Below, piece by piece: positions 5,995 to 45,820 of a DNA stretch of 46,907 bases. The notes beneath the pieces are model-generated. The model made no database searches and was not told where the DNA came from. It was given only the letters and a program-made list of their open reading frames with translations. The translations under genes and the position numbers were made by a program. The DNA comes from a virus (Duplodnaviria; Heunggongvirae; Uroviricota; Caudoviricetes). How positions within the stretch are numbered: the first letter of the stretch is position 1; each line of letters opens with the position of its first letter. The stretch lies in IMG/VR virus record IMGVR_UViG_2651869724_000014. The stretch is one strand, 5' to 3'.

Positions 5995-7329
5995 ATGTTT
6001 AGCTTAATCATGGCCGGAGAACCGGACGTTTTTGACCGCTGGCCGTGTATGGACCCAGGGCTTACAGAAGGCGAGGAAAGATTCTCGATGTCCCGCATGC
6101 TGGAAGGCACCCCAAGCGATATTTACAGTAAATTAACACCAATAAGACCCGATACCTTAAGAGAACTCGCCAAGCTACCAGTATTGTTCATGACCGAAAC
6201 TTATACAAAAGATGATGAATATGATACAAACAAGTACATCAGGATCAGACTTGGGGAAATAAGAAATTTACGTAAAGATGGTGGCGATATTTTATTTTCT
6301 TTCAAGATTAATCATAATTTTGGAGAAATAACGAATCCCCAAACGACATTATATAAAGAAACCCTAGGGCTAGGATCTTTCGGGTTAAGCCGTACACATT
6401 GGGCAGTAAAAAATAAGGATTTAAATATTGTTCTGGAATCACTTGGTTTAAACAAACAAAATAGTCACCTCAAAGGTACAATCAAATTAAAAAAACAAAC
6501 ATACCCAGTAGTCGAGAATATTATAGATTATCTTAATTTCATAAAGAAAAACTTTCGTGATGGTCTCATTACCTTTTATCGTGGACACTCTAAAAGCTCA
6601 TATGAGCTTGTCCCCTCTCTTTACAGAAAAAATCAAAACGGGACGTACAGGCATCTTGCTTCAGAATCTGATTTAGTACGTGAAATACTCAGCGCAAGAC
6701 CAAATGAATTTAAGGAGGATAAATTTACGATTGATAAACTTGTCCGCATGCAGCATTATGGCTTGCCTACAAGACTCTTAGACATTACATCTAACCCACT
6801 GATAGCATTATATTTTGCTTGCTGTTCGAACCCCAATGAAAACGGACAGGTGATTTCGTTTTCAACAAATAGAAAGAAAATTAAATATTTCGACTCAGAT
6901 ACAGTGAGCTGTATAGCAAACTTATCACTTTTATCTTACGAAGAGTTGGAAAAATTGTCCTCCTCTGATTCCAGAAAAGGTAATATGGAGTTATCTGAAC
7001 TCACTGATAAACTTGCAGACCTTATACAGAATGAAAAATCATATTTTAGAAACAGAATAATTCCTGATGACTTAAGGAAAGTTGTTTTCCTTAAGGCTAA
7101 AATAAATAATGAACGCATACAATCTCAGGCAGGAGCTTTTCTTCTGTTCGGACTTGATCCCATTTTACCGGAAACAGATGCTGAGTTTCCTCTTAACAGA
7201 GTGGAGATAGCGAACAAAAATAAAATTCTGGAAGAGCTGGCGCAGCTTAATATATCCGAAAGCACTGTATATCCCAGCATGGAGAAAACGGCAGCAGAAA
7301 TTAAAAAAAAGTTTTTATCGGTATCATAA
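5995..7329 (+). CDS. FRG-domain protein (moron)
   Basis: Central ITFYRGHSKSSYELVPSLYR ... MQHYGLPTRLLDITSNPLIALYFA are the FRG-domain signature blocks. AT-rich, and on the opposite strand to the surrounding phage genes. Confidence 0.8.
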   Translation: MFSLIMAGEPDVFDRWPCMDPGLTEGEERFSMSRMLEGTPSDIYSKLTPIRPDTLRELAKLPVLFMTETYTKDDEYDTNKYIRIRLGEIRNLRKDGGDILFSFKINHNFGEITNPQTTLYKETLGLGSFGLSRTHWAVKNKDLNIVLESLGLNKQNSHLKGTIKLKKQTYPVVENIIDYLNFIKKNFRDGLITFYRGHSKSSYELVPSLYRKNQNGTYRHLASESDLVREILSARPNEFKEDKFTIDKLVRMQHYGLPTRLLDITSNPLIALYFACCSNPNENGQVISFSTNRKKIKYFDSDTVSCIANLSLLSYEELEKLSSSDSRKGNMELSELTDKLADLIQNEKSYFRNRIIPDDLRKVVFLKAKINNERIQSQAGAFLLFGLDPILPETDAEFPLNRVEIANKNKILEELAQLNISESTVYPSMEKTAAEIKKKFLSVS

Positions 7330-14923: not shown

Positions 14924-15127
14924 ATGAGCAGCTTATTTTTAACCGAAGATGAATTGCTAATATTAACGGGCTGCAAATATGCAAGCCACCAGCGAAAATG
15001 GTTAATGGAAAACGGGCTTCCGTTCTATACCAATCGTAGTGGCAAACCGATTGTCAGCCGGGATCTATTTACCTGCAATAAAACTTTACCACCACGCGAG
15101 GTAGAGCCGAATTTTGGTGCGATCTGA
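14924..15127 (+). CDS. Excisionase-like protein (DUF4224 type)
   Basis: Small ORF whose stop overlaps the integrase start (TGATG), in the xis position. Confidence 0.65.
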   Translation: MSSLFLTEDELLILTGCKYASHQRKWLMENGLPFYTNRSGKPIVSRDLFTCNKTLPPREVEPNFGAI

Positions 15128-16209
15128 TGGGAAGACGAAGGAAAAATCCTGAACACGAAAAATTACCTCCAAATGTATACCCAAATAAATATAGTTATGT
15201 ATGGAAACCAACATCCAGAGAATCTGTCACACTAACCGCCATCAAGGATGGTTTAGCTGCTTTATGGAAAAAGTATGAGGAAACTGTAAATAATCGCGAT
15301 CGTGCAATGACATTCGGTCGCTTGTGGGAAAAATTCCTCGCCAGCGCCTATTACAGTGACCTTAGTCCAAGAACACAAAAAGATTATCTGCAACATCAAA
15401 AAAAGTTGCTTGCCGTATTCGGTAAGGTACCAGCGGATTCCATAAAACCAGAACACATCCGTCGATACATGGACAAAAGAGGGGAGCAGAGTAAAACGCA
15501 AGCCAACCATGAAAAAAGCAGTATGTCCCGTGTTTACAGTTGGGGGTATGAGCGAGGGTACGTCAAGGCTAACCCATGTGCAGGTGTAAGTAAATTCAAG
15601 GCCAAAAACCGCGAACGATATGTAACCGACAAAGAATACCAGGCAGTATTAAGCGTTGCACCTCTTCCTGTTTTTATCGCAATGGAAATTGCCTATCTGT
15701 GTGCAGCGAGGGTTTCCGATGTGTTATCGCTGAAATGGGAACAGATTGGAAACGACGGGATATTCATCCAGCAAGGGAAAACCGGAAAAAAACAGATAAA
15801 AGCATGGAGTCCACGATTACAGGCAGCGATCGAAAAAGCAAAACAGTTACCAAAATCTGCCTATGTGATCAGCAATCAATACGGCAACCGATATATGTAC
15901 AAAGGCTTTAACGAAATGTGGGTAGAAGCAAGAAATCGTGCTGGAAAAATTTCAGGTATTTTAACCGACTTCACCTTTCATGATCTGAAGGCGAAAGGAA
16001 TTTCAGACTATGAAGGAAGCAGCCGGGATAAGCAACTTTTCTCTGGTCACAAAACCGAAGGGCAAGTGCTAATCTATGACAGGAAGGTTAAAGTTTCACC
16101 AACACTTGATGTCCCGTTACCTGAAAATATTCCAAGAAAATATTCCAAGAAAATATTCCAAGTAATTCCAAGTGTGATTTTTGTCACTGACTTAATGATG
16201 TGTAAGTGA
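15127..16209 (+). CDS. Lambda-family tyrosine integrase
   Basis: MGRRRKNPEHEKLPPNVY... arm-binding N-terminus and a catalytic region with ARVSDVLSLKW and HDLKAKG. Abuts the tRNA-Ser 3' end. Confidence 0.9.
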   Translation: MGRRRKNPEHEKLPPNVYPNKYSYVWKPTSRESVTLTAIKDGLAALWKKYEETVNNRDRAMTFGRLWEKFLASAYYSDLSPRTQKDYLQHQKKLLAVFGKVPADSIKPEHIRRYMDKRGEQSKTQANHEKSSMSRVYSWGYERGYVKANPCAGVSKFKAKNRERYVTDKEYQAVLSVAPLPVFIAMEIAYLCAARVSDVLSLKWEQIGNDGIFIQQGKTGKKQIKAWSPRLQAAIEKAKQLPKSAYVISNQYGNRYMYKGFNEMWVEARNRAGKISGILTDFTFHDLKAKGISDYEGSSRDKQLFSGHKTEGQVLIYDRKVKVSPTLDVPLPENIPRKYSKKIFQVIPSVIFVTDLMMCK

Positions 16210-16217
16210 TTGAATTT

Positions 16218-16307
16218 TGGCGGAGAGAGGGGGATTTGAACCCCCGGTGGAGTTGCCCCCACTCCGGTTTTCGAGACCGGTCCGTTCAGCCGCTCCGGCA
16301 TCTCTCC
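16218..16307 (-). tRNA. serU: tRNA-Ser (anticodon CGA)
   Basis: Reverse complement GGAGAGATGCCGGAGCGGCTGAACGGACCGGTCTCGAAAACCGGAGT...GGTTCAAATCCCCCTCTCTCCGCCA. 90 nt with a long variable arm. Confidence 0.95.
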
Positions 16308-16400
16308 GTTCAGATGGTTGCCATGATGCCAGGAAATTTGGCATTTTAACAGTCCCTGTCCGTGCAATTTTGTTCAAGTGACGAGTTTGCGAGCAAAACG

Positions 16401-17198
16401 ATGATTAAGTGGCCCTGGAAAGTACAAGAATCAGCACATCAAACTGCCCTTCCCTGGCAGGAAGCACTATCGATCCCCCTTTTAACGTGTCTGACAGAAC
16501 AGGAACAAAGCAAATTAGTCGCTCTTGCCGAACGTTTTTTACAACAAAAACGGCTTGTTCCTTTACAGGGCTTTGAGCTGAATTCATTAAGAAGCTGCCG
16601 GATAGCACTTCTATTTTGCCTGCCCGTTCTGGAGTTAGGACTGGAATGGCTGGATGGTTTTCATGAAGTCTTAATTTATCCTGCGCCATTTGTGGTCGAT
16701 GATGAATGGGAAGACGATGTCGGTCTGGTGCATAACCAACGTATTGTTCAGTCAGGTCAGAGCTGGCAGCAAGGGCCTATCGTTTTGAACTGGTTGGATA
16801 TACAAGATTCTTTTGATGCTTCTGGTTTTAACCTGATTATTCATGAAGTCGCTCATAAGCTGGACACCCGTAACGGCGATCGCGCCAGCGGAGTTCCCTT
16901 TATTCCGTTGCGTGAGGTTGCTGGCTGGGAACACGATCTTCATGCTGCAATGAACAACATTCAGGAAGAAATCGAATTGGTTGGCGAGAATGCGGCGAGC
17001 ATTGATGCTTATGCTGCCAGTGATCCTGCTGAATGTTTTGCCGTACTTTCTGAATATTTCTTTAGCGCCCCAGAACTTTTTGCTCCTCGTTTCCCTTCAT
17101 TGTGGCAACGTTTCTGCCAATTTTATCAACAAGATCCTTTGCAGAGACTGCATCGCACTAATAATACAGACTCGTTTTCGGCGACGAATGTTCATTAA
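16401..17198 (+). CDS. mtfA: Mlc titration factor A (zinc aminopeptidase-like)
   Basis: [23 protein letters not shown]... with the HEVAHKLD metalloprotease motif. Sits between serU and asnT as in K-12. Confidence 0.9.
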
Positions 17199-17298
17199 TT
17201 AACAACTTTGCAGATTAATTAACCAATTGAAATGGCTTATGAAATTTAGTGTTGACAGACAAGGTACCGCTAAGTAATATGCGCCCCGTTCACACGAT

Positions 17299-17374
17299 TC
17301 CTCTGTAGTTCAGTCGGTAGAACGGCGGACTGTTAATCCGTATGTCACTGGTTCGAGTCCAGTCAGAGGAGCCA
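17299..17374 (+). tRNA. asnT: tRNA-Asn (anticodon GTT)
   Basis: TCCTCTGTAGTTCAGTCGGTAGAACGGCGGACTGTTAATCCGTATGTCACTGGTTCGAGTCCAGTCAGAGGAGCCA, 76 nt. Confidence 0.95.
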
Positions 17375-17375
17375 A
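17351..17375. repeat. attL core (3' end of asnT)
   Basis: gttcgagtccagtcagaggagccaa, identical to 45796-45820. Confidence 0.85.
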
Positions 17376-17386
17376 TTTAAAGAAAG

Positions 17387-17410
17387 CAGACGTTCACTGA
17401 CGTCTGTTTT
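17387..17410 (+). terminator. Island-borne terminator for asnT
   Basis: cagacgt-tcactg-acgtctg followed by tttt. Confidence 0.5.
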
Positions 17411-17489
17411 CTGCATTTATATCAACTGGTTATCCCCTTCTTCAGGTTCACCCTCGTTCGTTAAAAACCGCTCGAATCCACACTACTTT

Positions 17490-17536
17490 GCTGGTAAAAA
17501 TGCTGGTAAAGCTGGTTCGATTTGCGTTTTACCAGC
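17490..17536. promoter_or_regulatory. GCTGGTAAA repeats (candidate integrase arm-type sites)
   Basis: gctggtaaa at 17490 and 17502, gctggttcg at 17511, and inverted ttttaccagc at 17527. Related copies lie at 45726-45748 near attR. Confidence 0.3.
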
Positions 17537-17553
17537 ACGCGGAGGGAACCGTC

Positions 17554-18822
17554 ATGTCACTTACTGATACTAAAGTAAAAAATGCCAGACCAGCGGAAAA
17601 AGCCGTCAAGCTCACTGATGGATTTGGTCTCTACCTTCTTTTGCATCCCAATGGTTCAAAATACTGGCAGTTAGGCTATCGCTTCGATGGTAAACAGAAA
17701 GTGTTTTCCATTGGTGTTTACCCTGCGGTTTCTCTTGCTGATGCCAGACAACGACGTGATGAAGCAAAAAAGCTGCTTGCTCAGGGAATCGATCCTAACG
17801 CTAAAAAACAGGCTGATGAAAAAACTCTGCAGGAAAAGCGGGATAAAACCCGTTCGTTCCGTGTCGTCGCCAGAAGCTGGTTTGCCACCAAAACAAAATG
17901 GTCTGAAGATTACGCCGATACGGTATGGAAGCGCCTTGAGACCTATGTATTCCCGGATATTGGTGACAGCAACGTTTCAGATCTGGATACGGGTGATCTG
18001 CTTGTTCCGGTAAAAAAAGCAGAAACGCTTGGCTATCTTGAAATTGCCATGCGGATCAAGCAATACATCACTGCCATCCTGCGTCACGCCGTCCAGCAAA
18101 AACTTATGCGCCATAATCCTGCTTACGATATGGAAGGTGCTGTGCAGAAACCAGAGACTGAGCACCGTCCCGCACTGGAGCTGGAAGAGATCCCCCTGCT
18201 ACTTGAACGTATTGATGCCTACAAAGGCCGTGGACTTACCACACTGGCGATTAAACTCAATCTGTTGATTTTCATTCGTTCCAGTGAACTCCGCTATGCA
18301 CGATGGTCAGAAATCGACTTCAACAGTAAGTTATGGGTGATACCAGAAAAGCGTGAAGTGATTGAGCGCGTCAAATATTCCACGCGTGGCGCAAAAATGA
18401 AACGCCAGCACTTTGTTCCCCTTTGCAGGCAGGCTCTTAAGATACTGAAAGAGATCCGTCAGCTTACCTATGAAGAAGGTAATGACGCCGGATTAATTTT
18501 TACTGGATGTTATGACTCATTCAAACCCATGAGTGAAAACACCATCAACAAGGCGCTGCGTAAGATGGGCTATGACACCACGCAGGACATCTGCGGTCAT
18601 GGTTTCCGAACACTGGCATGTAGTGCTCTGATTGAATCAGGGCTATGGTCTAAAGATGCGGTAGAACTTCAGATGAGCCACAAGGAAAGCAACAGTGTGC
18701 GTGCTGCCTATACCCATAAGGCCAAACATCTTGAACAGAGAAGATTGATGTTACAGTGGTGGGCAGATTATCTTGATGCAAATCGGGATGGGATGGTCAG
18801 GCCGTTTGAGTTTGCTCAATAA
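17554..18822 (+). CDS. P4-family tyrosine integrase
   Basis: MSLTDTKVKNARPAEKAVKLTDGFGLYLLLHPNGSKYWQLGYRFDGKQKVFSIGVYPAVSLADAR is a typical DUF4102 arm domain. C-terminal HGFR...Y catalytic motifs. Confidence 0.9.
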   Translation: MSLTDTKVKNARPAEKAVKLTDGFGLYLLLHPNGSKYWQLGYRFDGKQKVFSIGVYPAVSLADARQRRDEAKKLLAQGIDPNAKKQADEKTLQEKRDKTRSFRVVARSWFATKTKWSEDYADTVWKRLETYVFPDIGDSNVSDLDTGDLLVPVKKAETLGYLEIAMRIKQYITAILRHAVQQKLMRHNPAYDMEGAVQKPETEHRPALELEEIPLLLERIDAYKGRGLTTLAIKLNLLIFIRSSELRYARWSEIDFNSKLWVIPEKREVIERVKYSTRGAKMKRQHFVPLCRQALKILKEIRQLTYEEGNDAGLIFTGCYDSFKPMSENTINKALRKMGYDTTQDICGHGFRTLACSALIESGLWSKDAVELQMSHKESNSVRAAYTHKAKHLEQRRLMLQWWADYLDANRDGMVRPFEFAQ

Positions 18823-18857
18823 AAGTAAACATGGTGGTCAAAGGTTGCTTCAACTTC

Positions 18858-18884
18858 AATGCGGCTAAAGATATTAGCCGCATT
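18858..18884. terminator. 10-bp-stem hairpin between the convergent integrase and HEPN genes
   Basis: aatgcggcta-aagatat-tagccgcatt. No clear U-run. Confidence 0.35.
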
Positions 18885-18888
18885 AATA

Positions 18889-19605
18889 CTAAATCGCTAA
18901 CAGTTCTGTTTTCCAGTATTCACTACCACTTTTATCACAGACATGTGAATATAATATCCTATCCATAATCCTAACAATTTCTTTAACATTATTTAGCTTA
19001 TCAATAACAGTATCTTTTGAAAGATTAATTGAAGAATATGAATGGGCTAACTCCGTGCGGCTATCAGAGAAAGACTGGAGCATGAACTCATAATCTTTTT
19101 TACCTTTCGCAGTCATTGCTTTTAATATATCTTTGATACCAAATCTATTAAAAAGAAGTTTGATATTTTTTTTGGAAGGATATTTTTTATCCATTATCAG
19201 CTGTTTTGGGACAATAACAGGCTTTACAGGAGAATTAGGTGACGATAACGCCTGAAGTTTATCCTTACACTTATTTAAGTCACTCATCATTATTGACTCA
19301 GAACCATGAGAAACGTAATTTATAAAATTTTTCTCTTGGTTTTTGAATAAAGAAAACAAGATAATTTCATCAGGTAGATGCGAAAGGCATCCGTTATTTT
19401 GGTTCAGCATGTCAATCCAATCTTCCAAAACATCTTTAATATAATCTTCGAATGCAGCAGAAACTCGAAATATCGCGTTATTATAAACACTATGTATAAT
19501 ATCTGTTCTTAATTCTTTTATTTTTGAAACATAACGAACCTGTTCAAGCAAATTGGAATGAATCTGCTCGAATTGTTTTCTAGATGCGCTTTTAATATAT
19601 GCCAT
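18889..19605 (-). CDS. HEPN-type (RiboL-PSP / MAE_28990-like) putative RNase
   Basis: Predicted helical 238-aa protein with an R-x4-H motif (RTELAH) near the C-terminus. Start overlaps the DUF262 stop (TGATG). Confidence 0.7.
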   Translation of the reverse strand: MAYIKSASRKQFEQIHSNLLEQVRYVSKIKELRTDIIHSVYNNAIFRVSAAFEDYIKDVLEDWIDMLNQNNGCLSHLPDEIILFSLFKNQEKNFINYVSHGSESIMMSDLNKCKDKLQALSSPNSPVKPVIVPKQLIMDKKYPSKKNIKLLFNRFGIKDILKAMTAKGKKDYEFMLQSFSDSRTELAHSYSSINLSKDTVIDKLNNVKEIVRIMDRILYSHVCDKSGSEYWKTELLAI

Positions 19606-20720
19606 CAGTTGAAATACCGTTCAATGAAATTTTTCATTGTGCTAATACGATAATGAACCGATTGCGTCGCCGAAGTGCCAGAAGTAATCGACTCATTAAA
19701 ACGCTCCTCTGATGTTATTCTTTGAAACTCTATTAAGAAATCCTTAAGTTTTGTTGCATCAAGTTCGTTTATCATATCCTGATTAAATTTTGATACCATA
19801 AACCCGACAATTAGAGCATCAAATAAAGCAGAATTGAAATTTCTTACTTGAGGCTCTAAGTTTTCATTTAGAATTCTAAATGCTTTTTTACCAAACAATT
19901 TATTAATACAGTTTAATGCACCAAGAAATCTACTACGCCACTCCAAGGCAACATCAGGTTCAATATTTTGTTTTTCAGAACTAAAATCATTAAGGAATTT
20001 CTTTAATGGTTTTTTATATGGTGTCACAGAATATGAAAGTGCGAATGCTCTCAATATGAGTTCATTATTCTTCATTCGTGTGTCATTTTTAATTCCTGTT
20101 AAGTCTCTCCATACTTTCTCCTCACTTATTTCGTCAATCATAGTAAATAATGGACCATGATAAACTCCATGACGTACCTCCTGAGGATTTAATTGTACTG
20201 CACCTGTATTTATTCTTTCAAAAACATCAATTTTAATTTGAGGGTGAGTTTCTTTTAATATGGTTATGCATCTCAATGTGCGATTTAAAATATGCCTACG
20301 GAATCTCGCGTCCAGTGATGAAAACGAATTCCCCTCCAATTCTGGATATGCTGTCAATCCCTGTAATTCAAAACCATCCTCAATAAATAGTTTAATTGAA
20401 GTCAACCGTTGATTACCATCAATAACAGATAAACTCTCATCTTTCTCTTGGTTTAAATAAATAACAGGGATAGGACACTGGATTATTAAAGACTCAATTA
20501 ATCTTGATGCCTGCCCTCTACTCCAAACATATTTCCTTTGAAAATCAGGAATAAACACAGTACCATTTTTCAAATAGTCGACGAGTGTTGATATTGAAAA
20601 ATCGTAAGTCTCGGTATGCAATCGACGCTGCTCAGGGGGAATATCAACGATAGAAATATCATCATCATCAAATATTGGGAAAAGTTTATCCGCAAGTTTT
20701 TTGGCATCATTAACAGACAT
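19605..20720 (-). CDS. DUF262 (GmrSD N-terminal / ParB-like) protein
   Basis: IPDFQRKYVWSRGQASRLIESLIIQCPIPVIYL...VIDGNQRLTSI are the DUF262 signature blocks. No recognisable DUF1524/HNH half. Confidence 0.85.
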   Translation of the reverse strand: MSVNDAKKLADKLFPIFDDDDISIVDIPPEQRRLHTETYDFSISTLVDYLKNGTVFIPDFQRKYVWSRGQASRLIESLIIQCPIPVIYLNQEKDESLSVIDGNQRLTSIKLFIEDGFELQGLTAYPELEGNSFSSLDARFRRHILNRTLRCITILKETHPQIKIDVFERINTGAVQLNPQEVRHGVYHGPLFTMIDEISEEKVWRDLTGIKNDTRMKNNELILRAFALSYSVTPYKKPLKKFLNDFSSEKQNIEPDVALEWRSRFLGALNCINKLFGKKAFRILNENLEPQVRNFNSALFDALIVGFMVSKFNQDMINELDATKLKDFLIEFQRITSEERFNESITSGTSATQSVHYRISTMKNFIERYFN

Positions 20721-20921
20721 AATAGAACCTCATAAAAATAATTTTAATATATATTACATTAATGATCATTAATAATAAACACCATCAGTAAAAGATAAAA
20801 ATTACCCGCAAACTATAAATGCGCTTATCATTGCATATGTTATATATATCACAATAACAATAAGTATTTCAATACCTTAGATTACCTTCTACATGCGAAA
20901 TTCTGATGTTGATAAAAAGTA

Positions 20922-22199
20922 ATGTTAAAGAATACCAAGGAATGTGCCAACTCTGTATCAAGTGTGACGAATGCCATTGAAAGGGCCAAGGAACTATCAG
21001 GACTCGTCGTATCACGATTAAAATCCGAAGGCATGTATGCGGTTGGTAATGTGGATGGTTTATACCTTCGCATCCGAAATCAGTCCCGTGCATGGGTTCT
21101 TTGCGTGGCTATGGGAACCCGAATCAACAATCTCGGTAGAACAGTTCCAAGACGTTTGAATATGGGGCTTGGCCCTTACCCGGAAGTCTCCTTAGCCGAA
21201 GCGCGTGACAAAGCGCGTGAGCTACGTAAACAAATCCGTAATGGTATTAATCCCCTTCAAGAAAAACACGAACAAAAAGCCCGGCAGGAAATACTGGCCC
21301 GGAAGAAAAAGACCTTTGCCGAATGTTGTGAAGAAGTGCTGGAGGTCAAAGACAGTGAGATGAAGAACAAAAAACATCTCGCGCAATGGCGTTCCACACT
21401 GGAAACCTATGCCTACCCTTTCATTGGCAAAAAGGCCGTTAGTGAAATCACCAAAGTCGATCTTCTGGCAATACTGGAACCTATCTGGTTAACCAAGAAT
21501 GAAACTGCCAGTCGTCTACGTGGACGTATTGAAACAGTGATCGATTACGCCAAGGCCAAAGAATACTTTGAAGGTGATAATCCTGCCGCATGGAAAGGTA
21601 TGCTGAAACCTCTGTTGCCTCAGCCAAGTAAAGTTCAGATCACCAAACACCATGCGGCCCTTCCCTATAACCAGATCGGCTCTTTTATGAAAGAACTACG
21701 TGAACGAAGCGGCGTTTCTCCTCGTGCGCTTGAGTTTGCCATACTGACCGCAGCACGCTCAGGTGAAATTCGTGGTGCCGAGTGGTCAGAGATCGATCTT
21801 GAAGGTAAAACGTGGACCATACCTGCAAGCCGAATGAAAGCAGCGAAGGAGCATCGAGTTCCTCTGTCTGATGCTGCTGTTGCCTTGTTAAAAGCTTTAC
21901 CACGCTTTAAGGGTATCAGTTTTGTATTCCCTGCCACTCGGAAGGGACAACTCTCGGATACGGCTTTACTGGCAGTCCTAAAGCGAATGGGATATACCGA
22001 TTTAACACAGCATGGGTTTAGATCGACATTCCGTGATTGGGCTGGTGAAACGACCAACTATCCGCGTGAGGTAATTGAACATGCGTTAGCTCACCAGTTG
22101 GCAGATAAGGCAGAGGCTGCGTATCAACGTGGGACGTTATGGCCTAAGCGGGTGGCGTTGATGGATGAGTGGTCGGGGTTTTGTCTTGCCAATGTTTAG
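20922..22199 (+). CDS. Second tyrosine integrase (P4/CP4-57-like)
   Basis: GLGPYPEVSLAEARDKARELRKQIRNGINP arm/SAM-like region. HGFRSTFRDW...AYQRG catalytic end. Confidence 0.85.
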   Translation: MLKNTKECANSVSSVTNAIERAKELSGLVVSRLKSEGMYAVGNVDGLYLRIRNQSRAWVLCVAMGTRINNLGRTVPRRLNMGLGPYPEVSLAEARDKARELRKQIRNGINPLQEKHEQKARQEILARKKKTFAECCEEVLEVKDSEMKNKKHLAQWRSTLETYAYPFIGKKAVSEITKVDLLAILEPIWLTKNETASRLRGRIETVIDYAKAKEYFEGDNPAAWKGMLKPLLPQPSKVQITKHHAALPYNQIGSFMKELRERSGVSPRALEFAILTAARSGEIRGAEWSEIDLEGKTWTIPASRMKAAKEHRVPLSDAAVALLKALPRFKGISFVFPATRKGQLSDTALLAVLKRMGYTDLTQHGFRSTFRDWAGETTNYPREVIEHALAHQLADKAEAAYQRGTLWPKRVALMDEWSGFCLANV

Positions 22200-22209
22200 C
22201 GGTCTGATT

Positions 22210-22503
22210 GAAAACATGATCAACAAGGCGCTGCGTAAGATGGGCTATGACACCACGCAGGATATTTGCGGTCATGGTTTCCGCACACTGGCATGTAGTG
22301 CTCTGATTGAATCAGGGCTATGGTCTGAAGATGCGGTGGAACTCCAGATGAACCACAAGGAAAGCAACAGTGTTCGTGCTGCCTATACACATAAGGCCAA
22401 ACATCTTGAGCAGCGAAGGTTGATGCTACAATGGTAGGCAGATTTTCTTGATGCTAACTGGGATGGGATGGTCAGGCCGTTTGAGTTTGCTCAGAAACAA
22501 TAA
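22210..22503 (+). pseudogene. Displaced 3' fragment of a P4-type integrase gene (paralogous to 18535-18822)
   Basis: Aligns base-for-base with the 3' end of the first integrase: about 20-odd substitutions and one 6-nt indel by hand count. TGG to TAG at 22435-22437. Confidence 0.85.
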
Positions 22504-22535
22504 TCGCCTTCCAGCAAGCAGACAATCGCAGTAAA

Positions 22536-22566
22536 TAAAAAACGCAGGGAGGTTTTACTCTCCCTG
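22536..22566 (-). terminator. Rho-independent terminator of the 83-aa gene
   Basis: Minus strand: cagggag-agtaaaac-ctccctg followed by a T-run. Confidence 0.6.
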
Positions 22567-22573
22567 TTACTTA

Positions 22574-22825
22574 TCACTTACGCCCTTTGTTTGATTGTGC
22601 CAAAACAGAGGCTGCAAGTTGCTTCGTTAACTTGCTGGAACGTGGATTATCAAGAGCTGATGATGCCTTATGCTCCATTTGCCCACTTGTCTGGTTTGAT
22701 GTCCCACGTTGCGAAAGCGCAGAACCAGCGAGGCTTTTCTGGATGGCAGAAGCATTAGGATTAGCCAGCGTTTTTGCAGCAGTAGAAGCCACATTTTCAG
22801 AAGTCTGTTTTACGTTTTTACTCAT
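22574..22825 (-). CDS. Hypothetical 83-aa Ala/Ser/Gln-rich protein
   Basis: ORF from MSKNVKQTSENV... followed by a terminator. No family recognised. Confidence 0.55.
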   Translation of the reverse strand: MSKNVKQTSENVASTAAKTLANPNASAIQKSLAGSALSQRGTSNQTSGQMEHKASSALDNPRSSKLTKQLAASVLAQSNKGRK

Positions 22826-23191
22826 GAAACGAATCCCCAAGAAGTTATGAATATCCCTTATGTAGTACTTACATTCCTAAAGAAACACCACATACAGTGG
22901 CATCAACAGATTTTATAATCCTTTGTTTTCCTAAAAACAAGTCTAAAACTGTATAAAAACACAGTTATGATATAGTCTATTGTTTTTAATGAATAAAAAT
23001 AACTAATCGCGTTTAACGAAGAGAAACTAAAAGTTAGCCACTGCTATGAAAAAGAGCTCCTGACAGCAAATAACTTTCAGAAATCTATAGCGATCTTCAT
23101 CTTGAGAGAGGCTTGTACTTAACCCGCAAAAGGTATAGGTATATAATTATTATCAGCTTATACCAAATGGCTATCAATGATAGGAATAAAA

Positions 23192-24097
23192 ATGATTTTA
23201 GTTATAACATCTAGCTTTGATAAAACAATTGATTACATAGTAAAAAAACATAGCATTAACAATTTTTACAGGTTAGATGTTGATAATTTCTCTGAATATA
23301 AATTTTCTTACACTAAAAAAGGATTCAGTATTGTTAATAAAAATAATAATGAATTGCTCGAGAGTGAATGCAGATCCATCTATTATAGAAAACCAACTCC
23401 TGAGAATATTATCAATAAAATTGATTCAAAATATCATAATCATTGCTTTCGAGAAGTATTCGCTTTTGTTGAAGGGATTGCTGAGTCGTTTACTGGAAAA
23501 TGCTTATCCAAGCCATCAATTATAAAAAGAGCAGATAACAAAGTATTGCAAGCAAAAACTGCAATTGATATTGGATTCACAATTCCTGATTTTATATTGA
23601 CAAATAATTTCGATTGTTTCAAAAACACTTTGACAATCAATAGCATTGTCAAACCGTTATCAAGTGGATTGATAGAAAATCAGAAAGAAAAGGAATTTGT
23701 TCAAACAAATATGGTTGACATGAATAAAAACACAGAAACATTAAAATATTGTCCAGCTTATTTTCAATCGTATACAAAAAAAGAATTCGAGGTGAGATCA
23801 ACATTCATAAATGGTAAAGATTATTCGGTAAAAATAATATCTAAAAATAAAATTGACTGGAGAAAAGACAATAACGAAATATTCTATTCAACAATAAAAA
23901 TGCCTGATACTATAAAAGAAAAATGTCTGAGGTATATGTCAGTCATGAATATTTCTTTTGGATGTTTTGATTTTATAGTTTTTGATGGTGAATGGTTCTT
24001 CTTAGAGATGAATGCAAATGGTCAATGGGCATGGCTAGAAAATGAAACGAATATTAATGTGTCAAGTGAGTTAGTGAGGTTTTTAAATGAAGTATAA
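23192..24097 (+). CDS. MvdC/MvdD-type ATP-grasp ligase (RiPP macrocyclase-like)
   Basis: Blocks MILVITSSFDKT, SIYYRK, RADNKVLQAKTAIDIGFTIPDF, IDWRKD and FGCFDFIVFDGEWFFLEMNANGQWAWLE parallel the microviridin-type ATP-grasp enzymes. AGGA RBS before the ATG at 23192 (the track ORF starts at 23177). Confidence 0.8.
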   Translation: MILVITSSFDKTIDYIVKKHSINNFYRLDVDNFSEYKFSYTKKGFSIVNKNNNELLESECRSIYYRKPTPENIINKIDSKYHNHCFREVFAFVEGIAESFTGKCLSKPSIIKRADNKVLQAKTAIDIGFTIPDFILTNNFDCFKNTLTINSIVKPLSSGLIENQKEKEFVQTNMVDMNKNTETLKYCPAYFQSYTKKEFEVRSTFINGKDYSVKIISKNKIDWRKDNNEIFYSTIKMPDTIKEKCLRYMSVMNISFGCFDFIVFDGEWFFLEMNANGQWAWLENETNINVSSELVRFLNEV

Positions 24098-24941
24098 TTT
24101 CATTTACTTTATTATAAAATTATTAAACTTTTCATTATTATTCCACACATCATTAGATGAGAATTTTGATACTATTGAAAAAAGAAATGTTATTAATTCC
24201 ACGTCATTAAGAGTATCTTTATTATGTTTTCCTGTGGGGAGTAAAATAATATATTTATTAACTTTCAATAAAAAATCAAACCGTATTTTGGATAAATCTA
24301 ACTTCCAGTTTTTTACGAGCATACACTATGATACACTTTGCCCAAGAATATCGGGCACAAAAATTGAAGAATATGTCATGGCGTATAGTCAATATATTAA
24401 ATCAATTCTACCTAAAAGAAGGAAGGAACAAGAAGATTTTTTAAAGCAGCGCCTTTCCGAAAATAACGATAGTTTATCTAATCTTCAAAGTAAGATAACA
24501 CATTATACTACTATCACTATTGCCCTCACAGGGGCAGTGGTTTATCTACAAACCATTCTACCATCCGCAAATACAAATTTTGCAATAAGATTTATTTCCT
24601 ATTATTTATTTTTTATATTGCTTGTTGATATAATTAATTTATTTCTTTTTCTAAGAAAAGGAATGATGGTAAGTAGTTTTTCTCAATCAAGTTTTAAATC
24701 ATTAAAATTTGATAACAGTAATTATGCCTTAACGAAGGCTATATATCGTGACTGGATAGCAAGAAAAGATGACGTCAGATATTTTGCAGGTATAGTTAGA
24801 AATGCCGAAAAATATCTATACAGATCGATTTTAGTTGGAATCACGCTATACATGTTTTCCATTTCACTGCAATATTATAGCGATAATCCAGTGAATGAAA
24901 TCATATTCACGCCGTCAGGCATGTTTTTAGCTGTAAATTAA
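24087..24941 (+). CDS. Multi-pass membrane protein of unknown function
   Basis: GAGG RBS and an 11-nt overlap with the ligase gene. Hydrophobic segments: TTITIALTGAVVYLQTIL, FISYYLFFILLVDIINLFLFL, SILVGITLYMFSISL. Confidence 0.6.
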   Translation: MKYNFIYFIIKLLNFSLLFHTSLDENFDTIEKRNVINSTSLRVSLLCFPVGSKIIYLLTFNKKSNRILDKSNFQFFTSIHYDTLCPRISGTKIEEYVMAYSQYIKSILPKRRKEQEDFLKQRLSENNDSLSNLQSKITHYTTITIALTGAVVYLQTILPSANTNFAIRFISYYLFFILLVDIINLFLFLRKGMMVSSFSQSSFKSLKFDNSNYALTKAIYRDWIARKDDVRYFAGIVRNAEKYLYRSILVGITLYMFSISLQYYSDNPVNEIIFTPSGMFLAVN

Positions 24942-24952
24942 AAGGATATAAT

Positions 24953-25297
24953 ATGAAACCGTATACTATGCTCTATAGTGAATCTTTCGAAATAAACGCA
25001 TCAACAATTTCAAGTAAAACAAACTCTACCGTAAAAACATTTACCACAGAACCTAATGATGAAGATTATCTCAACACTTGGACAACGCATACAAGAGTCA
25101 TAGAGAACCAAGATGAGGATTACAGTTTAGCCCCCAGCAACTGTGAAAGAAAATACGAAATATCTAATGAAAAGCAGTCTGCTATGGATACATTTTTTAC
25201 AGAATCTATTGAAAATAATGATGATGATTTTATAGTATGTAGAACATTTGTAACAAATGTCGTTGAATCAGGTGATGATGATTTCTATTTTAACTAA
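24953..25297 (+). CDS. 114-aa acidic protein with four T-[FW]-x-T...D-[DE]-D-[FY] repeats (candidate multi-core precursor)
   Basis: AAGGA RBS. Repeats: TFTTEPNDEDY, TWTTHTRVIENQDEDY, TFFTESIENNDDDF, TFVTNVVESGDDDF. Confidence 0.65.
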   Translation: MKPYTMLYSESFEINASTISSKTNSTVKTFTTEPNDEDYLNTWTTHTRVIENQDEDYSLAPSNCERKYEISNEKQSAMDTFFTESIENNDDDFIVCRTFVTNVVESGDDDFYFN

Positions 25298-25327
25298 ATA
25301 GATTCTGGTGAAACAAACGCCTTAATT

Positions 25328-25352
25328 ATAAAGGGCCTTCTTGGCCCTTTTA
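25328..25352. terminator. Bidirectional terminator between convergent genes
   Basis: aagggcc-ttctt-ggccctt flanked by A/T runs. Confidence 0.6.
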
Positions 25353-25411
25353 ATTTACCATGACATATGATAATGGCAATTATCACCATTTAAATAAAAT
25401 GGACAGAAACA

Positions 25412-26875
25412 TTATCTACACGCATATAACCTTCTTATATTACTATAACAGTGCTCGTTCTTACTACCACTACAACGTCGTTCATCGTATTCAGCGATTA
25501 AAGTTCCAGATATATAACCAAACTGAGGACTATACGTTGATCCCGGGCAGGCACATGTCCCAGTGTCACTATTCGGTATAACGCATTTATAACCAGAGAT
25601 TTGATCTGTTATTGTGATAAAAATACCTTTCAGACCATCACCACTTGCTGTCTGCCATTTACCACTGACACACGATAACATCCTACCCGCACTGTCTCGC
25701 CCCACCAGACCATTAGGCGTATATTTCGCATTTAACGTTGCCTGACCATTCAAATGAAGATATTCACCTGCTTTGATTCTGCCTGTTGATTCAATTGTTC
25801 CGTTGGATTTTATCGTTCCGGCAGTAAGATTACCTGAAGCATAAATATTACCCGCATTATTCATGTAAGCTTTAACTGTTTTCCCGGTTCCTACACCAAC
25901 AGTCCCTGACGCATATAAATCATAGGTGCGAACACCGCCAGCCCAGCCAGCAGGCAGATCGTTTGGATTAAGTCCATTCGTCGCGATACGACTACCAAAC
26001 TTCGCCAGACCTGTTGTTGAAAGCGTGTTCAGATAGGTATCGGATTTTACCCTCAGATTGTTGTTGATATTTACAGGACCATTAAGGGTCGAGGTTCCAC
26101 CCACACTCAGATCTGATGCAACAGACGCATTACCCGTTGTCTTAAGTGCTCCCGTTGTTGTTGTTCCTGATGCCGTCATATCTTTGATGTTTTTGATGCT
26201 CTTACCACCAAGATTCAGATCACCCGTCATCGGCAACGTCCCATCACGGCGCAGGTAAACAGAATACATTGAAGAGTTATACCCCACGCGGTAAGCCAGC
26301 AATCCACCACCCGTGATGTTATTGTAGCTGTTAGAGTTCTCACTCCACTGACCACCATAACCAGAAGCGATCTTGGTGCTTCTGCTCATACCACCATCAA
26401 CACCTGCCGCCTGAACCGCTTTACCTAACAGGTCATAACGAATACGACCACCTTCTTCCCACGGGCTGGCGGTTGTTATAAGGCCATTAATCACGTAATT
26501 AGGCGCGGTTCCTGAACGCTTTAACACAATTTTGTAAGATGCTTTTTGCGCGTTAGTTCCTGTATAGCCTACAGGCAACAAACCTTCATTAATTAACGTC
26601 TGGTAAGTGATTTCACAGCCATTAGACGTACAGGTTCTTGGCCCCGGATCGCTGCTTTGATTATTGGATGATGACAGTGTGGATATCTTGTCATAGCGAA
26701 TACTGATATAGCGGTTAACCGCTTCTCCAAGCTGTTTAATCTGTGTTCCGACATTATCAGCCAATACCGCTTCCTGATTGTTTCTCATATCCTGAAATTT
26801 CATAAAAGCGATAAGCGTTCCAATACCTAAAACAATACTGACTTCCAGTAAGGTAAATCCTTTATTCTTTATCAT
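25412..26875 (-). CDS. pilV: PilV-like type IVb minor pilin / tip adhesin
   Basis: Prepilin leader MIKNKG|FTLLEVSIVLGIG and a long Gly/Thr/Asn-rich body, as in R64-type thin-pilus PilV. Confidence 0.8.
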   Translation of the reverse strand: MIKNKGFTLLEVSIVLGIGTLIAFMKFQDMRNNQEAVLADNVGTQIKQLGEAVNRYISIRYDKISTLSSSNNQSSDPGPRTCTSNGCEITYQTLINEGLLPVGYTGTNAQKASYKIVLKRSGTAPNYVINGLITTASPWEEGGRIRYDLLGKAVQAAGVDGGMSRSTKIASGYGGQWSENSNSYNNITGGGLLAYRVGYNSSMYSVYLRRDGTLPMTGDLNLGGKSIKNIKDMTASGTTTTGALKTTGNASVASDLSVGGTSTLNGPVNINNNLRVKSDTYLNTLSTTGLAKFGSRIATNGLNPNDLPAGWAGGVRTYDLYASGTVGVGTGKTVKAYMNNAGNIYASGNLTAGTIKSNGTIESTGRIKAGEYLHLNGQATLNAKYTPNGLVGRDSAGRMLSCVSGKWQTASGDGLKGIFITITDQISGYKCVIPNSDTGTCACPGSTYSPQFGYISGTLIAEYDERRCSGSKNEHCYSNIRRLYACR

Positions 26876-34907: not shown

Positions 34908-35930
34908 TTAATTCCCTGTTATTATTTTGCTTAGAATTTCGTCAATATATTCGGTTGTAACTATAAACGCATTTTTACCAATCTCACTTCGAAATATTTG
35001 GCATTCATCACTATGAAATTTACTAATGAAAAAATCAAATGAACACTGTGCTATAGCCTTATTAATACCATCCACGTTTGGTTTATCTTCTGGATTTGGC
35101 GTTGCATAAAGTAGCGAATATGAATCTAATGGAATATATATACATTTTAAATCATCATTACTTTCATAGAATGGCTTAAACTTTCGTTCCCCAGACACTT
35201 CAAAGATTACAATACTATCTCCTAAAATCAAAGATTGATTTGTTTTCAATACTTTGTAATGCATATTCTTATAAATATTACTTTTCTTATCCTCAGATGA
35301 AACCAAAACATCTAACTGAACCTTTTTTACTATTTCAGGTATTTTTGATATTATTTCTTGCTCAAACTTCGGAACTAATGTTGATAGCATCTTTTCTGCA
35401 GCATTTGGTAGCCATAATTGAACGTTATCAAAAAACATGGAGTTATATTGCTCATGTAGACTTGCTGGTATTGGTAGTTTATTTAACTCATTTTGAAGTA
35501 ATTCTTTGATTGTTTTTGGATTTCTTTGGAAATAATCAATAAGAGTTTCCTTGTCTAGCAATCTGTTTTTTAATTGCTCACCAAAATATGCCCATGAATC
35601 TATCATGTTTTCTCTTAAGTTTTTTGTTCTAATCTCCATATGATAAATAAACTCGGCTAAATCTTTCCTGTTGTCTAGGTTGTAAGTCCCATCGACTAAA
35701 CTATTAAGTATGCGTGAATAACTGTATGTTTCGTTTTCTGTTATTTTTTTATCAACGCTTGAATCGCCATAGTGAGAATAAAACTTGTTTTCCAAACCAA
35801 TATTCTCTACTATCATGTTTTCCTTGAAACAATCTTTTCTATACCAGTTAGTAAAATACTTCCCATTTTTTTCGTTAGAAAAACCTCTTTGTAAAAAACG
35901 TGGAATAAAATGTTGCCTATTCCCTGCCAT
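34908..35930 (-). CDS. DUF4238-family protein
   Basis: N-terminal MAGNRQHFIPRFLQRGFS (DUF4238 signature H-[FY]-[IV]-P-x-F-x-L-x-x-F). GAGGAG RBS before the ATG at 35930. Confidence 0.75.
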   Translation of the reverse strand: MAGNRQHFIPRFLQRGFSNEKNGKYFTNWYRKDCFKENMIVENIGLENKFYSHYGDSSVDKKITENETYSYSRILNSLVDGTYNLDNRKDLAEFIYHMEIRTKNLRENMIDSWAYFGEQLKNRLLDKETLIDYFQRNPKTIKELLQNELNKLPIPASLHEQYNSMFFDNVQLWLPNAAEKMLSTLVPKFEQEIISKIPEIVKKVQLDVLVSSEDKKSNIYKNMHYKVLKTNQSLILGDSIVIFEVSGERKFKPFYESNDDLKCIYIPLDSYSLLYATPNPEDKPNVDGINKAIAQCSFDFFISKFHSDECQIFRSEIGKNAFIVTTEYIDEILSKIITGN

Positions 35931-45440: not shown

Positions 45441-45795
45441 TCTTTTCCCTAAAAATGTTGATATTCATTACATTGACGTTAACGCATCCGGCAGCATAGA
45501 GAAAGAGAATAATGATAACTGGCGGTCTCAGCATTGGTCATAGAGTGTTCTTCTGTCTTTCGTTATCTTTCCGGAGGTAAACATATCGGGTAATAGCGTT
45601 AATCTGTTGAATCAGCGATTGAAGATTTGTAGCAGAACAGGGAGATCGTTCAGTGAGATTTAGTGAAGCGTGTTGTCATAACTAATTGATAGTAATTGAC
45701 TTTATGGTGATATAGCATTAAAAATGCTGGTAAATATGATGGTAAAAACAGACGCCATTTTTTGAAAGCCCCTAACAGCAGGAGATACAGATGAA

Positions 45796-45820
45796 GTTCG
45801 AGTCCAGTCAGAGGAGCCAA
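45796..45820. repeat. attR core (copy of the asnT 3' end)
   Basis: gttcgagtccagtcagaggagccaa, identical to 17351-17375. Confidence 0.85.

Follow-up and report, generated by a model that had tools for sequence, protein, structure and literature searches.

The integration of a mobile element into the 3' end of a gene, for which it supplies a substitute end, is known from e14 in icd and from the P4-type islands in tRNA genes. Islands may also grow by tandem accretion, as ICESt1 and the CIME (cis-mobilisable elements) do in Streptococcus thermophilus, and the hotspots of P2/P4 and of SXT/R391 are slots within mobile elements where the cargo, defence genes included, is variable. Composite tRNA-borne islands have been described at the asn-tDNA of Klebsiella (PMC4891358), integrative mobilisable elements (IMEs) at tRNA hotspots of E. 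coli together with defence hotspots (PMC10121019), and the DUF262 systems have been reviewed along with the three-gene definition of Menshen (PMC12065111). We analysed a DNA of 46,907 nucleotides (nt) from the viral record IMGVR_UViG_2651869724_000014, called the window below, whose positions serve as coordinates. It holds an island at the tRNA gene asnT with two integrase genes, int1 and int2, and the 3' end of int1 is found again just downstream of int2; the upstream and downstream copies of this tail are called A and B. Our literature search returned context on IMEs, defence hotspots and DUF262 systems, and no description of the structure or composite history of this island. The feature is an ordinary one, namely a fossil integrase in a mosaic island, and the region is the variable cargo slot of the asnT island. 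We consider it probable that copy B is the leftover stump of an older integrase, the mosaic having been built by recombination among sister islands.

The repeat and the genes which it encloses are the following.

17554 to 18822, plus strand: int1 ("int1A"), intact P4-family tyrosine integrase of 422 amino acids (aa) with the Pfam domains Arm-DNA-bind_3, Phage_int_M and Phage_integrase; annotated as a 422-aa integrase in strain E2348/69.
18530 to 18828, plus strand: repeat copy A, the native 3' end of int1A (alignment; contiguous with HEPN-DUF262 in other genera too).
18889 to 19605, minus strand: HEPN (RiboL-PSP type) protein, second gene of a two-gene defence-like pair (Pfam PF18735, E = 6.5e-12; no PADLOC match).
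19605 to 20720, minus strand: DUF262/ParB-like (GmrSD_N) protein, NsnA-like and PD-T4-2_A-like (Pfam PF03235; PADLOC NsnA 5.6e-83, PD-T4-2_A 9.2e-44).
20721 to 20955, no strand: upstream region travelling with the DUF262 pair; the homology to Phytobacter/Serratia-type islands fades at about 20950-20955, just before int2.
20922 to 22199, plus strand: int2, second P4-family integrase, of the serU-targeting type; open reading frame (ORF) open, native leader and attachment (att) site absent.
22205 to 22503, plus strand: repeat copy B, orphan 3' stump of a displaced int1 allele (about codons 327-425), abutting the int2 stop (alignment).

A repeat finder returned one family, 18530-18828 against 22205-22503, which is direct, gapless, 299 nt long and 91% identical with a spacing of 3675 nt, and the other direct repeats within 15000-26000 do not exceed 30 nt. 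A pairwise alignment with a site-by-site count gave 26 mismatches in the 299 nt. The duplication is far beyond chance, and the initial annotation, which had noticed it, was right on this point; the 6-nt indel which it counted is a gap lying beyond the end of the homology. It had placed the start of copy B 10 nt past the int2 stop (22197-22199), and the distance is actually 2-5 nt, as the homology starts at 22205, possibly at 22202. At the other end the homology runs to the stop region of int1 (18819-18828 in copy A, 22494-22503 in copy B), and among int1 alleles it stops at 18818-18825 in every case. The TGG-to-TAG change which had been read at 22435 is real (codon 22435-22437, altered base 22436) and gives copy B a premature stop; its original stop, at 22501-22503, lies three codons beyond that of copy A. 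Against the Pfam Phage_integrase profile, copy B gives a match in the C-terminal catalytic part alone. Near their left ends, both copies have TGAAAAC in common, followed by a perfect block of about 43 nt.

The initial annotation explained this arrangement by a 3.7-kilobase (kb) mini-element, made of a substitute tail, the HEPN/DUF262 pair and int2, which would have inserted site-specifically in the 3' part of a resident int1 gene, using its tail as attB. The geometry fits, with direct repeats of a gene 3' end of which the upstream copy is intact and the downstream one decayed, and the TGAAAAC with its perfect block could hold the core. Yet we met the unit nowhere else, and many genomes have one of its two junctions without the other, which largely refutes this explanation. 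We surveyed 5,426 complete E. coli genomes (selected loci bear L numbers). The int1 tail has matches in about 340 of them, and int2 in about 400 or more. The DUF262/HEPN DNA is present in 28 of them, at an identity of at least 99.7% and always in the order asn-tRNA / int1A / HEPN / DUF262 / int2. Four of these 28 genomes (O127:H6) carry tail B, while the other 24 have a Cap4-type nuclease gene and pilV behind int2, the homology with the window ending at 22184. At 99% identity or more, the A-type tail is confined in this set to the 28 DUF262-bearing genomes, and tail B with its downstream sequence to the four O127:H6 genomes. The exact DUF262 protein occurs in 1,084 assembly blocks, the 24 largest contigs of which show only the tail-B and the Cap4-nuclease contexts. 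Neither among the 5,426 genomes nor among these 24 blocks was the unit found in another integrase gene, where the initial annotation had proposed to look for it.

The second junction, between int2 and tail B, exists without DUF262/HEPN in islands at serU (L009, L106, L006), with the same few bases between stop and stump. The order is int2-stump-SIR2-TIR in 24AR0180, int2-stump-hyp252-NA37/RelA-SpoT cargo in CP148378, and int2-HNH-AAA, int2 stump, int1 stump, hyp252, ATP-grasp in strain 8178; int2 followed by the Cap4 nuclease alone is found at serU in NS-NP030 (L152). The modules expected of a composite island occur separately: int1-hyp252-ATP-grasp in L008, serU-int2-stump in L106 and L009, serU-int2-Cap4 nuclease in L152, and int1A'-HEPN-DUF262 in L146. 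Thus both DUF262-bearing island types consist of an int1-HEPN-DUF262 head and of a body known separately behind int2. The 3.7-kb segment is not a discrete element, and its two halves occur independently.

The genes which follow copy B in the window belong to the body.

22574 to 22825, minus strand: hyp252, small hypothetical gene, which follows the int1 stop in uninterrupted islands.
23177 to 25297, plus strand: cargo block, an MvdC/MvdD-like ATP-grasp gene and two hypothetical genes.
25412 to 26875, minus strand: pilV, first gene of the conserved mobilisation backbone and right border of the variable cargo slot.

No PADLOC model matched the ATP-grasp genes of the cargo block. In complete E. 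coli genomes, the pilV-pilin-TraD-MobQ backbone is headed either by int1 at an asn tRNA or by int2 at serU, and the slot extends from the integrase stop to the pilV stop with a cargo which differs by strain:

UTME-6: hyp252 / S-4TM proteins
KBN10P04869: hyp252 / ATP-grasp
SW07099: TIR / kinase-like / TIR
ATCC 25922: one large hypothetical gene
24AR0180: SIR2-TIR
NS-NP030: Cap4-type nuclease
strain 8178: HNH-AAA
Eco_24-2013: Dcm-ATPase

The initial annotation had suggested looking for "empty" islands. Uninterrupted islands, with the order asnT / int1 / hyp252 / ATP-grasp, do exist, as the mini-element would predict; none of them has a B-type tail, since theirs differ by 20-33 positions in 290 nt.

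The target of int2 is a further difficulty for a mini-element. Four int2-headed islands have a chromosomal flank which closes with the final 14 nt of serU (TGGCGGAGAGAGGG, as read along int2); this core lies some 165 nt upstream of int2. In 24AR0180 the far end of the island abuts a complete serU, followed by mtfA and asnT. Therefore int2 reads as a serU integrase with its att site on its 5' side, and it is predicted to be the primary integrase of the sister islands at the serU 3' end. The homology of the window int2 to native int2 genes begins at the start codon, so that the leader which carries the core is absent; among int2 alleles the homology stops at the equivalent of 22184-22189. We found no serU core near the window int2 or elsewhere inside 17375-45795, and no match resembling the 14-nt core at 18530 or 22205. 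Compared with native int2 genes, the window has a TT insertion at 20977-20978, by which the native ATG (20971) loses its frame; the ORF remains open thanks to an ATG further upstream, at 20922, and its N-terminus is then another one. On the identical sequence of E2348/69, RefSeq splits int2 into two pseudogene pieces, of which the second is fused with tail B, and int2 is also an annotated pseudogene in L003 and L004, the two carriers of the Cap4-nuclease type whose annotation was read. The window int2 has the appearance of a recombinase stranded without an att site.

What seems to be functional is the whole integrative mobilisable island of 28.4 kb at asnT, rather than the 3.7-kb segment. Its ends are marked as follows.

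17299 to 17374, plus strand: tRNA-Asn (asnT; ARAGORN), of which the last 24-25 nt (17351-17375) form the attL core.
17489 to 17537: three candidate arm-type integrase-binding repeats TGCTGGTAAA between attL and int1, all exact matches, at 17489 (plus), 17501 (plus) and 17528 (minus).
45725 to 45820, plus strand: right end of the island, with TGCTGGTAAA-type repeats at 45725 (exact) and 45737 (one mismatch) and the attR core at 45796-45820.

The asnT 3' end (17351-17375) is repeated directly and perfectly over 25 nt at 45796-45820, and therefore the island occupies 17375-45820. Exact copies of TGCTGGTAAA are found in the window only between asnT and int1 and at 45725, about 70 nt before the right-hand repeat, and a scan of the window showed none near 18530, 20950 or 22205; tolerating one mismatch raises the number to 17 in the whole window, where shuffles give an expectation of 3.4. 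Such a layout is the one expected for candidate arm-type sites at the attL and attR of a single element served by int1. The intact int1A is predicted to be the working integrase of the whole island, with tail A as its working 3' end. The island has a P4-family integrase beside an intact tRNA gene and the repeat of the tRNA 3' end at its far end; the enteropathogenic E. coli (EPEC) strain E2348/69 (NC_011601) has an island 99.9% identical to it, where the MobQ relaxase, TraD, PilV and a pilin are annotated. In the backbone the order is pilV, the pilin gene, TraD and the MobQ relaxase, preceded by low-GC cargo, and no mating-pair formation gene is listed in the E2348/69 annotation up to the equivalent of window position 35200. 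The E2348/69 island sits at a different asn tRNA gene, beside yeeO, and near-identical or related islands (NC_011601; L003, L004, L010, L112) sit across strains at three asn tRNA loci, beside mtfA, yeeO and nac, from which the island appears to move as a whole. By comparison, no part of 18530-22204 behaves as an independent element, and the repeat would be able only to support a RecA-type deletion of 3.7 kb and to serve as a homology arm for the exchange of cargo.

To the left of the island lies a lambdoid prophage whose terminal integrase (15127-16209) is beside tRNA-Ser(CGA) (16218-16307, minus strand), then come mtfA and asnT. The motif GAAAATATTCCAAGAAA is found there in three overlapping copies with a 13-nt spacing (16123-16165), in the final codons of the prophage integrase gene, just before tRNA-Ser.

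The left half of the segment has a history of its own in other genera. A Phytobacter contig and Serratia/Klebsiella/Citrobacter-type genomes have an asn att followed by int1A' (80% identical in aa), HEPN (89%) and DUF262 (91%), with no int2. After DUF262 these islands have about 310 nt, then a shorter int1 stump and a Cap4 nuclease (58%), with TraD and MobQ in some genomes. Their nucleotide identity to the window is 73.5% in the 5' part of int1, 81% in tail A and 86-87% in the HEPN/DUF262 cargo genes. As int1A, tail A, HEPN and DUF262 are contiguous across genera, tail A is the native end of that integrase. The Serratia-type stump begins at a point aligned to window position 18673, some 45 codons further on than tail B, and therefore the two duplications cannot share one attB. 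Each of the two tails, A and B, is part of a different integrase gene, and at no time did they bound a single insertion. Judging from these comparisons, int1A with HEPN/DUF262 is best described as an old, conserved head module, independent of int2. In total, the mini-element is contradicted by the scattered occurrence of its halves, by the serU target of int2 and its decay, by the contiguity of the head in genera without int2, by the want of a B-type tail in any uninterrupted int1 found, and by the location of the arm-type-like repeats at the ends of the 28.4-kb island and not near those of the segment. We regard it as highly improbable.

Several further observations bear on the HEPN/DUF262 pair. 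Homologues of DUF262-HEPN (71% in nt; 72% in aa) are found directly beside the 3' ends of other integrases (L115 1-2400, L116 355-3316, L144 7915-10829), which belong to a lambdoid prophage at serU and to a P2-like prophage of Sodalis ligni. No phage matched the 3.7-kb unit, and Acinetobacter plasmids match it only partially, at 72%. We also considered that int1A-HEPN-DUF262 might be a self-contained mini-island of 3.6 kb in E. coli, and rejected it: neither an att core nor a TGCTGGTAAA repeat lies near 20950, the right-arm repeats being at 45.7 kb.

The evidence for homologous exchange comes first from the int2 gene itself. Compared with the islands of the Cap4-nuclease type, the window int2 has no difference in its first 100 nt and about 10 per 100 nt in 21771-22070. 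Compared with the serU-type alleles, it has 9-11 differences in its first 100 nt and 0-2 per 100 nt in 21971-22170, and the last 230 nt or so are nearly identical. These opposite gradients of single-nucleotide polymorphisms (SNPs) mean that a crossover took place inside int2. Second, the block 22405-25411, which comprises the last 100 nt or so of the tail, hyp252, ATP-grasp and two hypothetical genes, is 99.6% identical across three architectures of the head: the window, KBN10P04869 with an intact int1 (L008 7201-10207) and strain 8178 with a stump (L006 8201-11207). Its flanks are much more divergent, at about 85% identity in the first 200 nt of the tail (where the differences fall at third codon positions) and 88-91% in pilV. 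From such sharp edges of identity, the tail, whether intact or reduced to a stump, was the left crossover arm of a recent cassette exchange.

In L008, the uninterrupted int1 (6970-7200, compared with window 18500-18730 and 22175-22405) has a patch of about 200 nt which is 12-15% divergent from both tails, with differences at a spacing of 3 nt, the rest of the gene being 98% identical and the cargo 99.6%. This patch suggests gene conversion among int1 paralogues. We gave up dating the junctions by divergence, as the tails hold patches of differences at third codon positions which resemble gene conversion.

Taken together, these results lead us to propose three steps. In the first, a serU-type int2 module would have displaced the first 980 nt or so of an older int1, by an illegitimate join 2-5 nt past the int2 stop; the product, int2 / stump / hyp252 / cargo, is a form extant in serU islands. 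In the second, an island headed by int1A-HEPN-DUF262 would have gained a body headed by int2, joined to it once, at the start codon of int2; the junction between head and int2 is indeed single and common to all 28 genomes. In the third, homologous recombination inside int2 would have placed the stump / hyp252 / ATP-grasp body behind the DUF262 head. The crossover of this last step is demonstrated by the SNP mosaic, while the interconversion of the Cap4-nuclease form and of the stump/hyp252/ATP-grasp form, and its direction, would follow from it. The founding joins were probably illegitimate joins aided by homologous crossovers in the common backbone; they may have had their source in deletions across adjacent or tandem islands. 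The alternative which the initial annotation had itself mentioned, recombination or deletion among accreted islands, comes close to this account.

Another way to obtain two direct tail copies would be a Campbell-type insertion, in which a circle with int2 / int1-stump / HEPN / DUF262, for example from a serU island, enters by a single RecA crossover of its stump with the resident int1. One crossover in 290 nt of homology would be enough, and the right-hand copy would then lie at a pre-existing int2/stump junction, which is what serU islands have; crossovers inside the tail do occur, since the 99.6% identical cargo block begins in the tail at about 22405. Against this, no serU island with a stump followed by HEPN-DUF262 was found in the 5,426 E. 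coli genomes or in the 24 largest of the 1,084 blocks, the association of int1A with HEPN-DUF262 is of old date and extends to other genera, whose downstream stump starts elsewhere, and an extra deletion is required to join the upstream region of DUF262 to the start of int2. We find this scheme quite unlikely.

Tandem accretion must also be weighed, that is, successive site-specific islands at the same asn tRNA followed by internal deletions in which the superfluous backbone was lost together with the internal att and the resident integrase's 5' part. Tandem arrays do occur in the family, since the Phytobacter contig has a partial asn core (16 nt, without a tRNA body) before int1A'. Moreover the int1 tail contains a sequence close to the tRNA end:

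18669 to 18680, plus strand: pseudo-att TCAGATGAGCCA within the int1 tail, with 11 of its 12 nt identical to the asnT 3' end (TCAGAGGAGCCA).

The shorter int1 stump of the Serratia/Klebsiella/Phytobacter-type islands starts at the position of this pseudo-att (...GTGAGCCA; TGAGCCA in the Serratia type), which is consistent with resolution by the integrase, and the pseudo-att may be a secondary att site through which the integrase trims resident integrase genes. Furthermore, the five stumps met in other Enterobacterales all represent the C-terminus and share the strand of the integrase, four of them downstream of a full integrase and one upstream. In the window, however, the gene which precedes the stump is int2, whose target is serU and not asn; no remnant of an internal asn core (16 nt, at most 2 mismatches) or serU core exists in 17375-45795; and the islands with the int2/stump junction sit at serU, with serU, mtfA and asnT intact alongside. 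Accretion of this kind is unlikely to account for the window. A related idea, the fusion in situ of neighbouring serU and asnT islands by one deletion, was rejected as the present state because the serU island with the int2/stump junction keeps serU, mtfA and asnT beside it.

Several points weigh against the mosaic which we prefer. We infer the order and the type of the founding joins and the direction of events. The supposed recipient, int1A-HEPN-DUF262 directly followed by pilV, was not found among the islands surveyed. The uninterrupted int1 / hyp252 / ATP-grasp islands are such as the insertion model had predicted, and since the tails have been scrambled by apparent gene conversion their divergence cannot date the junctions. 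Lastly, the DUF262 head ends at about 20950 both in E. coli and in the Serratia-type islands although the DNA which follows is different, a coincidence which independent random joins do not predict. Considering this common end and the pseudo-att at the start of the Serratia-type stump, we keep a more structured mechanism of exchange as a minor possibility. A wider version of the mosaic may be put forward, with some reserve, as a speculation which we think rather doubtful: the 3' ends of P4-type integrases, intact or stumps, would be portable handles: crossovers within the tail would swap defence cassettes between sister islands whose integrases differ, head modules (att, integrase and first cargo) would be grafted serially, and at the pseudo-att TCAGATGAGCCA the integrase might itself cut back resident integrase genes. 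If this were true, islands would switch between the serU and asn tRNA targets and leave behind a stack of integrase fossils.

The architecture of a full integrase with a stump recurs across Enterobacterales, and the points of truncation vary. Among 80 int1-family loci of other Enterobacterales, five have a C-terminal integrase stump on the same strand (two further partial matches are cut by the ends of the loci). The downstream stumps start at aa 168, 288, 341 and 385, and what separates them from the full integrase is restriction-modification genes, ParB-like genes with a serine recombinase, or insertion sequence (IS) DNA. The Buttiauxella locus L021 (11273-15320) has a full int1-family integrase, two ParB-like genes, a large serine recombinase and an int stump (aa 288-423), and here an element may really have entered an integrase gene. 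Stumps of the int2 type are found before the int1 stump or after hyp252 (L006 7818-7994; L010 8888-9145; L001 8244-8336). Their similarity is strong from the codon equivalent to that where tail B begins (aa 328/329) and weak further upstream, so that the junction is not a hard one. We considered whether int codon 328 or so is a fixed site of recombination, as alignments of the int1 stump and of the int2 stumps of 8178 and Eco_24-2013 have this start in common; we do not claim such a site, because the weak similarity extends upstream in the int2 stumps and the stumps of other genera start at aa 168, 288, 341 and about 375-385. In the metagenome contig OGEK01005385.1 (L113), window position 23277 is joined to 20877 in inverted orientation with an overlap of 8 nt (junction 1392-1399); either the assembly is chimeric here or the int2 / stump / hyp252 segment has been inverted.

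The window does not contain a new kind of mobile element. It shows how the defence-gene slot of a widespread family of mobilisable islands of E. coli is rebuilt, integrase-plus-cargo heads and cargo cassettes being traded among sister islands at neighbouring tRNA genes, with stumps left behind. For annotation, this means that an arrangement such as the present one need not indicate a nested mobile element. For surveys of defence systems, it assigns both the DUF262/HEPN pair and an ATP-grasp cassette, itself uncharacterised, to an exchangeable slot with well-defined limits.

It remains to compare the locus with the known systems. Like e14 in icd, it has a direct repeat of a gene 3' end with a functional upstream copy and a decayed downstream one. 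Unlike e14, the segment between the copies is not a discrete unit (24 genomes have it without tail B, and the serU islands have the second junction without DUF262/HEPN), no empty site with a matching tail was found among the islands surveyed, the ends of the segment are devoid of att architecture, and int2, with serU as its predicted target, does not appear to recognise the duplicated sequence. With the composite islands formed by accretion and decay, the locus has in common several integrases or remnants in the same orientation within one island, modules which are separate in other strains, and an older integrase which is a pseudogene. It is unlike ICESt1/CIME in that no internal att site survives, in that its two integrases target different tRNA genes, asn and serU, and in that at least the last step was a homologous exchange inside int2 and not a site-specific accretion. 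The pair in the head resembles PD-T4-2 and Menshen (NsnABC) by its DUF262 protein, which is strongly NsnA-like and PD-T4-2_A-like; it differs from Menshen by having two genes only, without the NsnB ABC ATPase, the partner being a HEPN protein of the RiboL-PSP type without PADLOC match. Finally, as in defence hotspots, the slot is sharply bounded, here by the integrase stop and the pilV stop, and the cargo is strain-specific and defence-like (TIR, SIR2-TIR, Cap4-type nuclease, HNH-AAA, Dcm-ATPase, ATP-grasp, DUF262-HEPN). Unlike the hotspots of P2/P4 and of SXT/R391, the imports in the family of the window sometimes bring all or part of the integrase of the donor, and the stumps are then the left homology arms.

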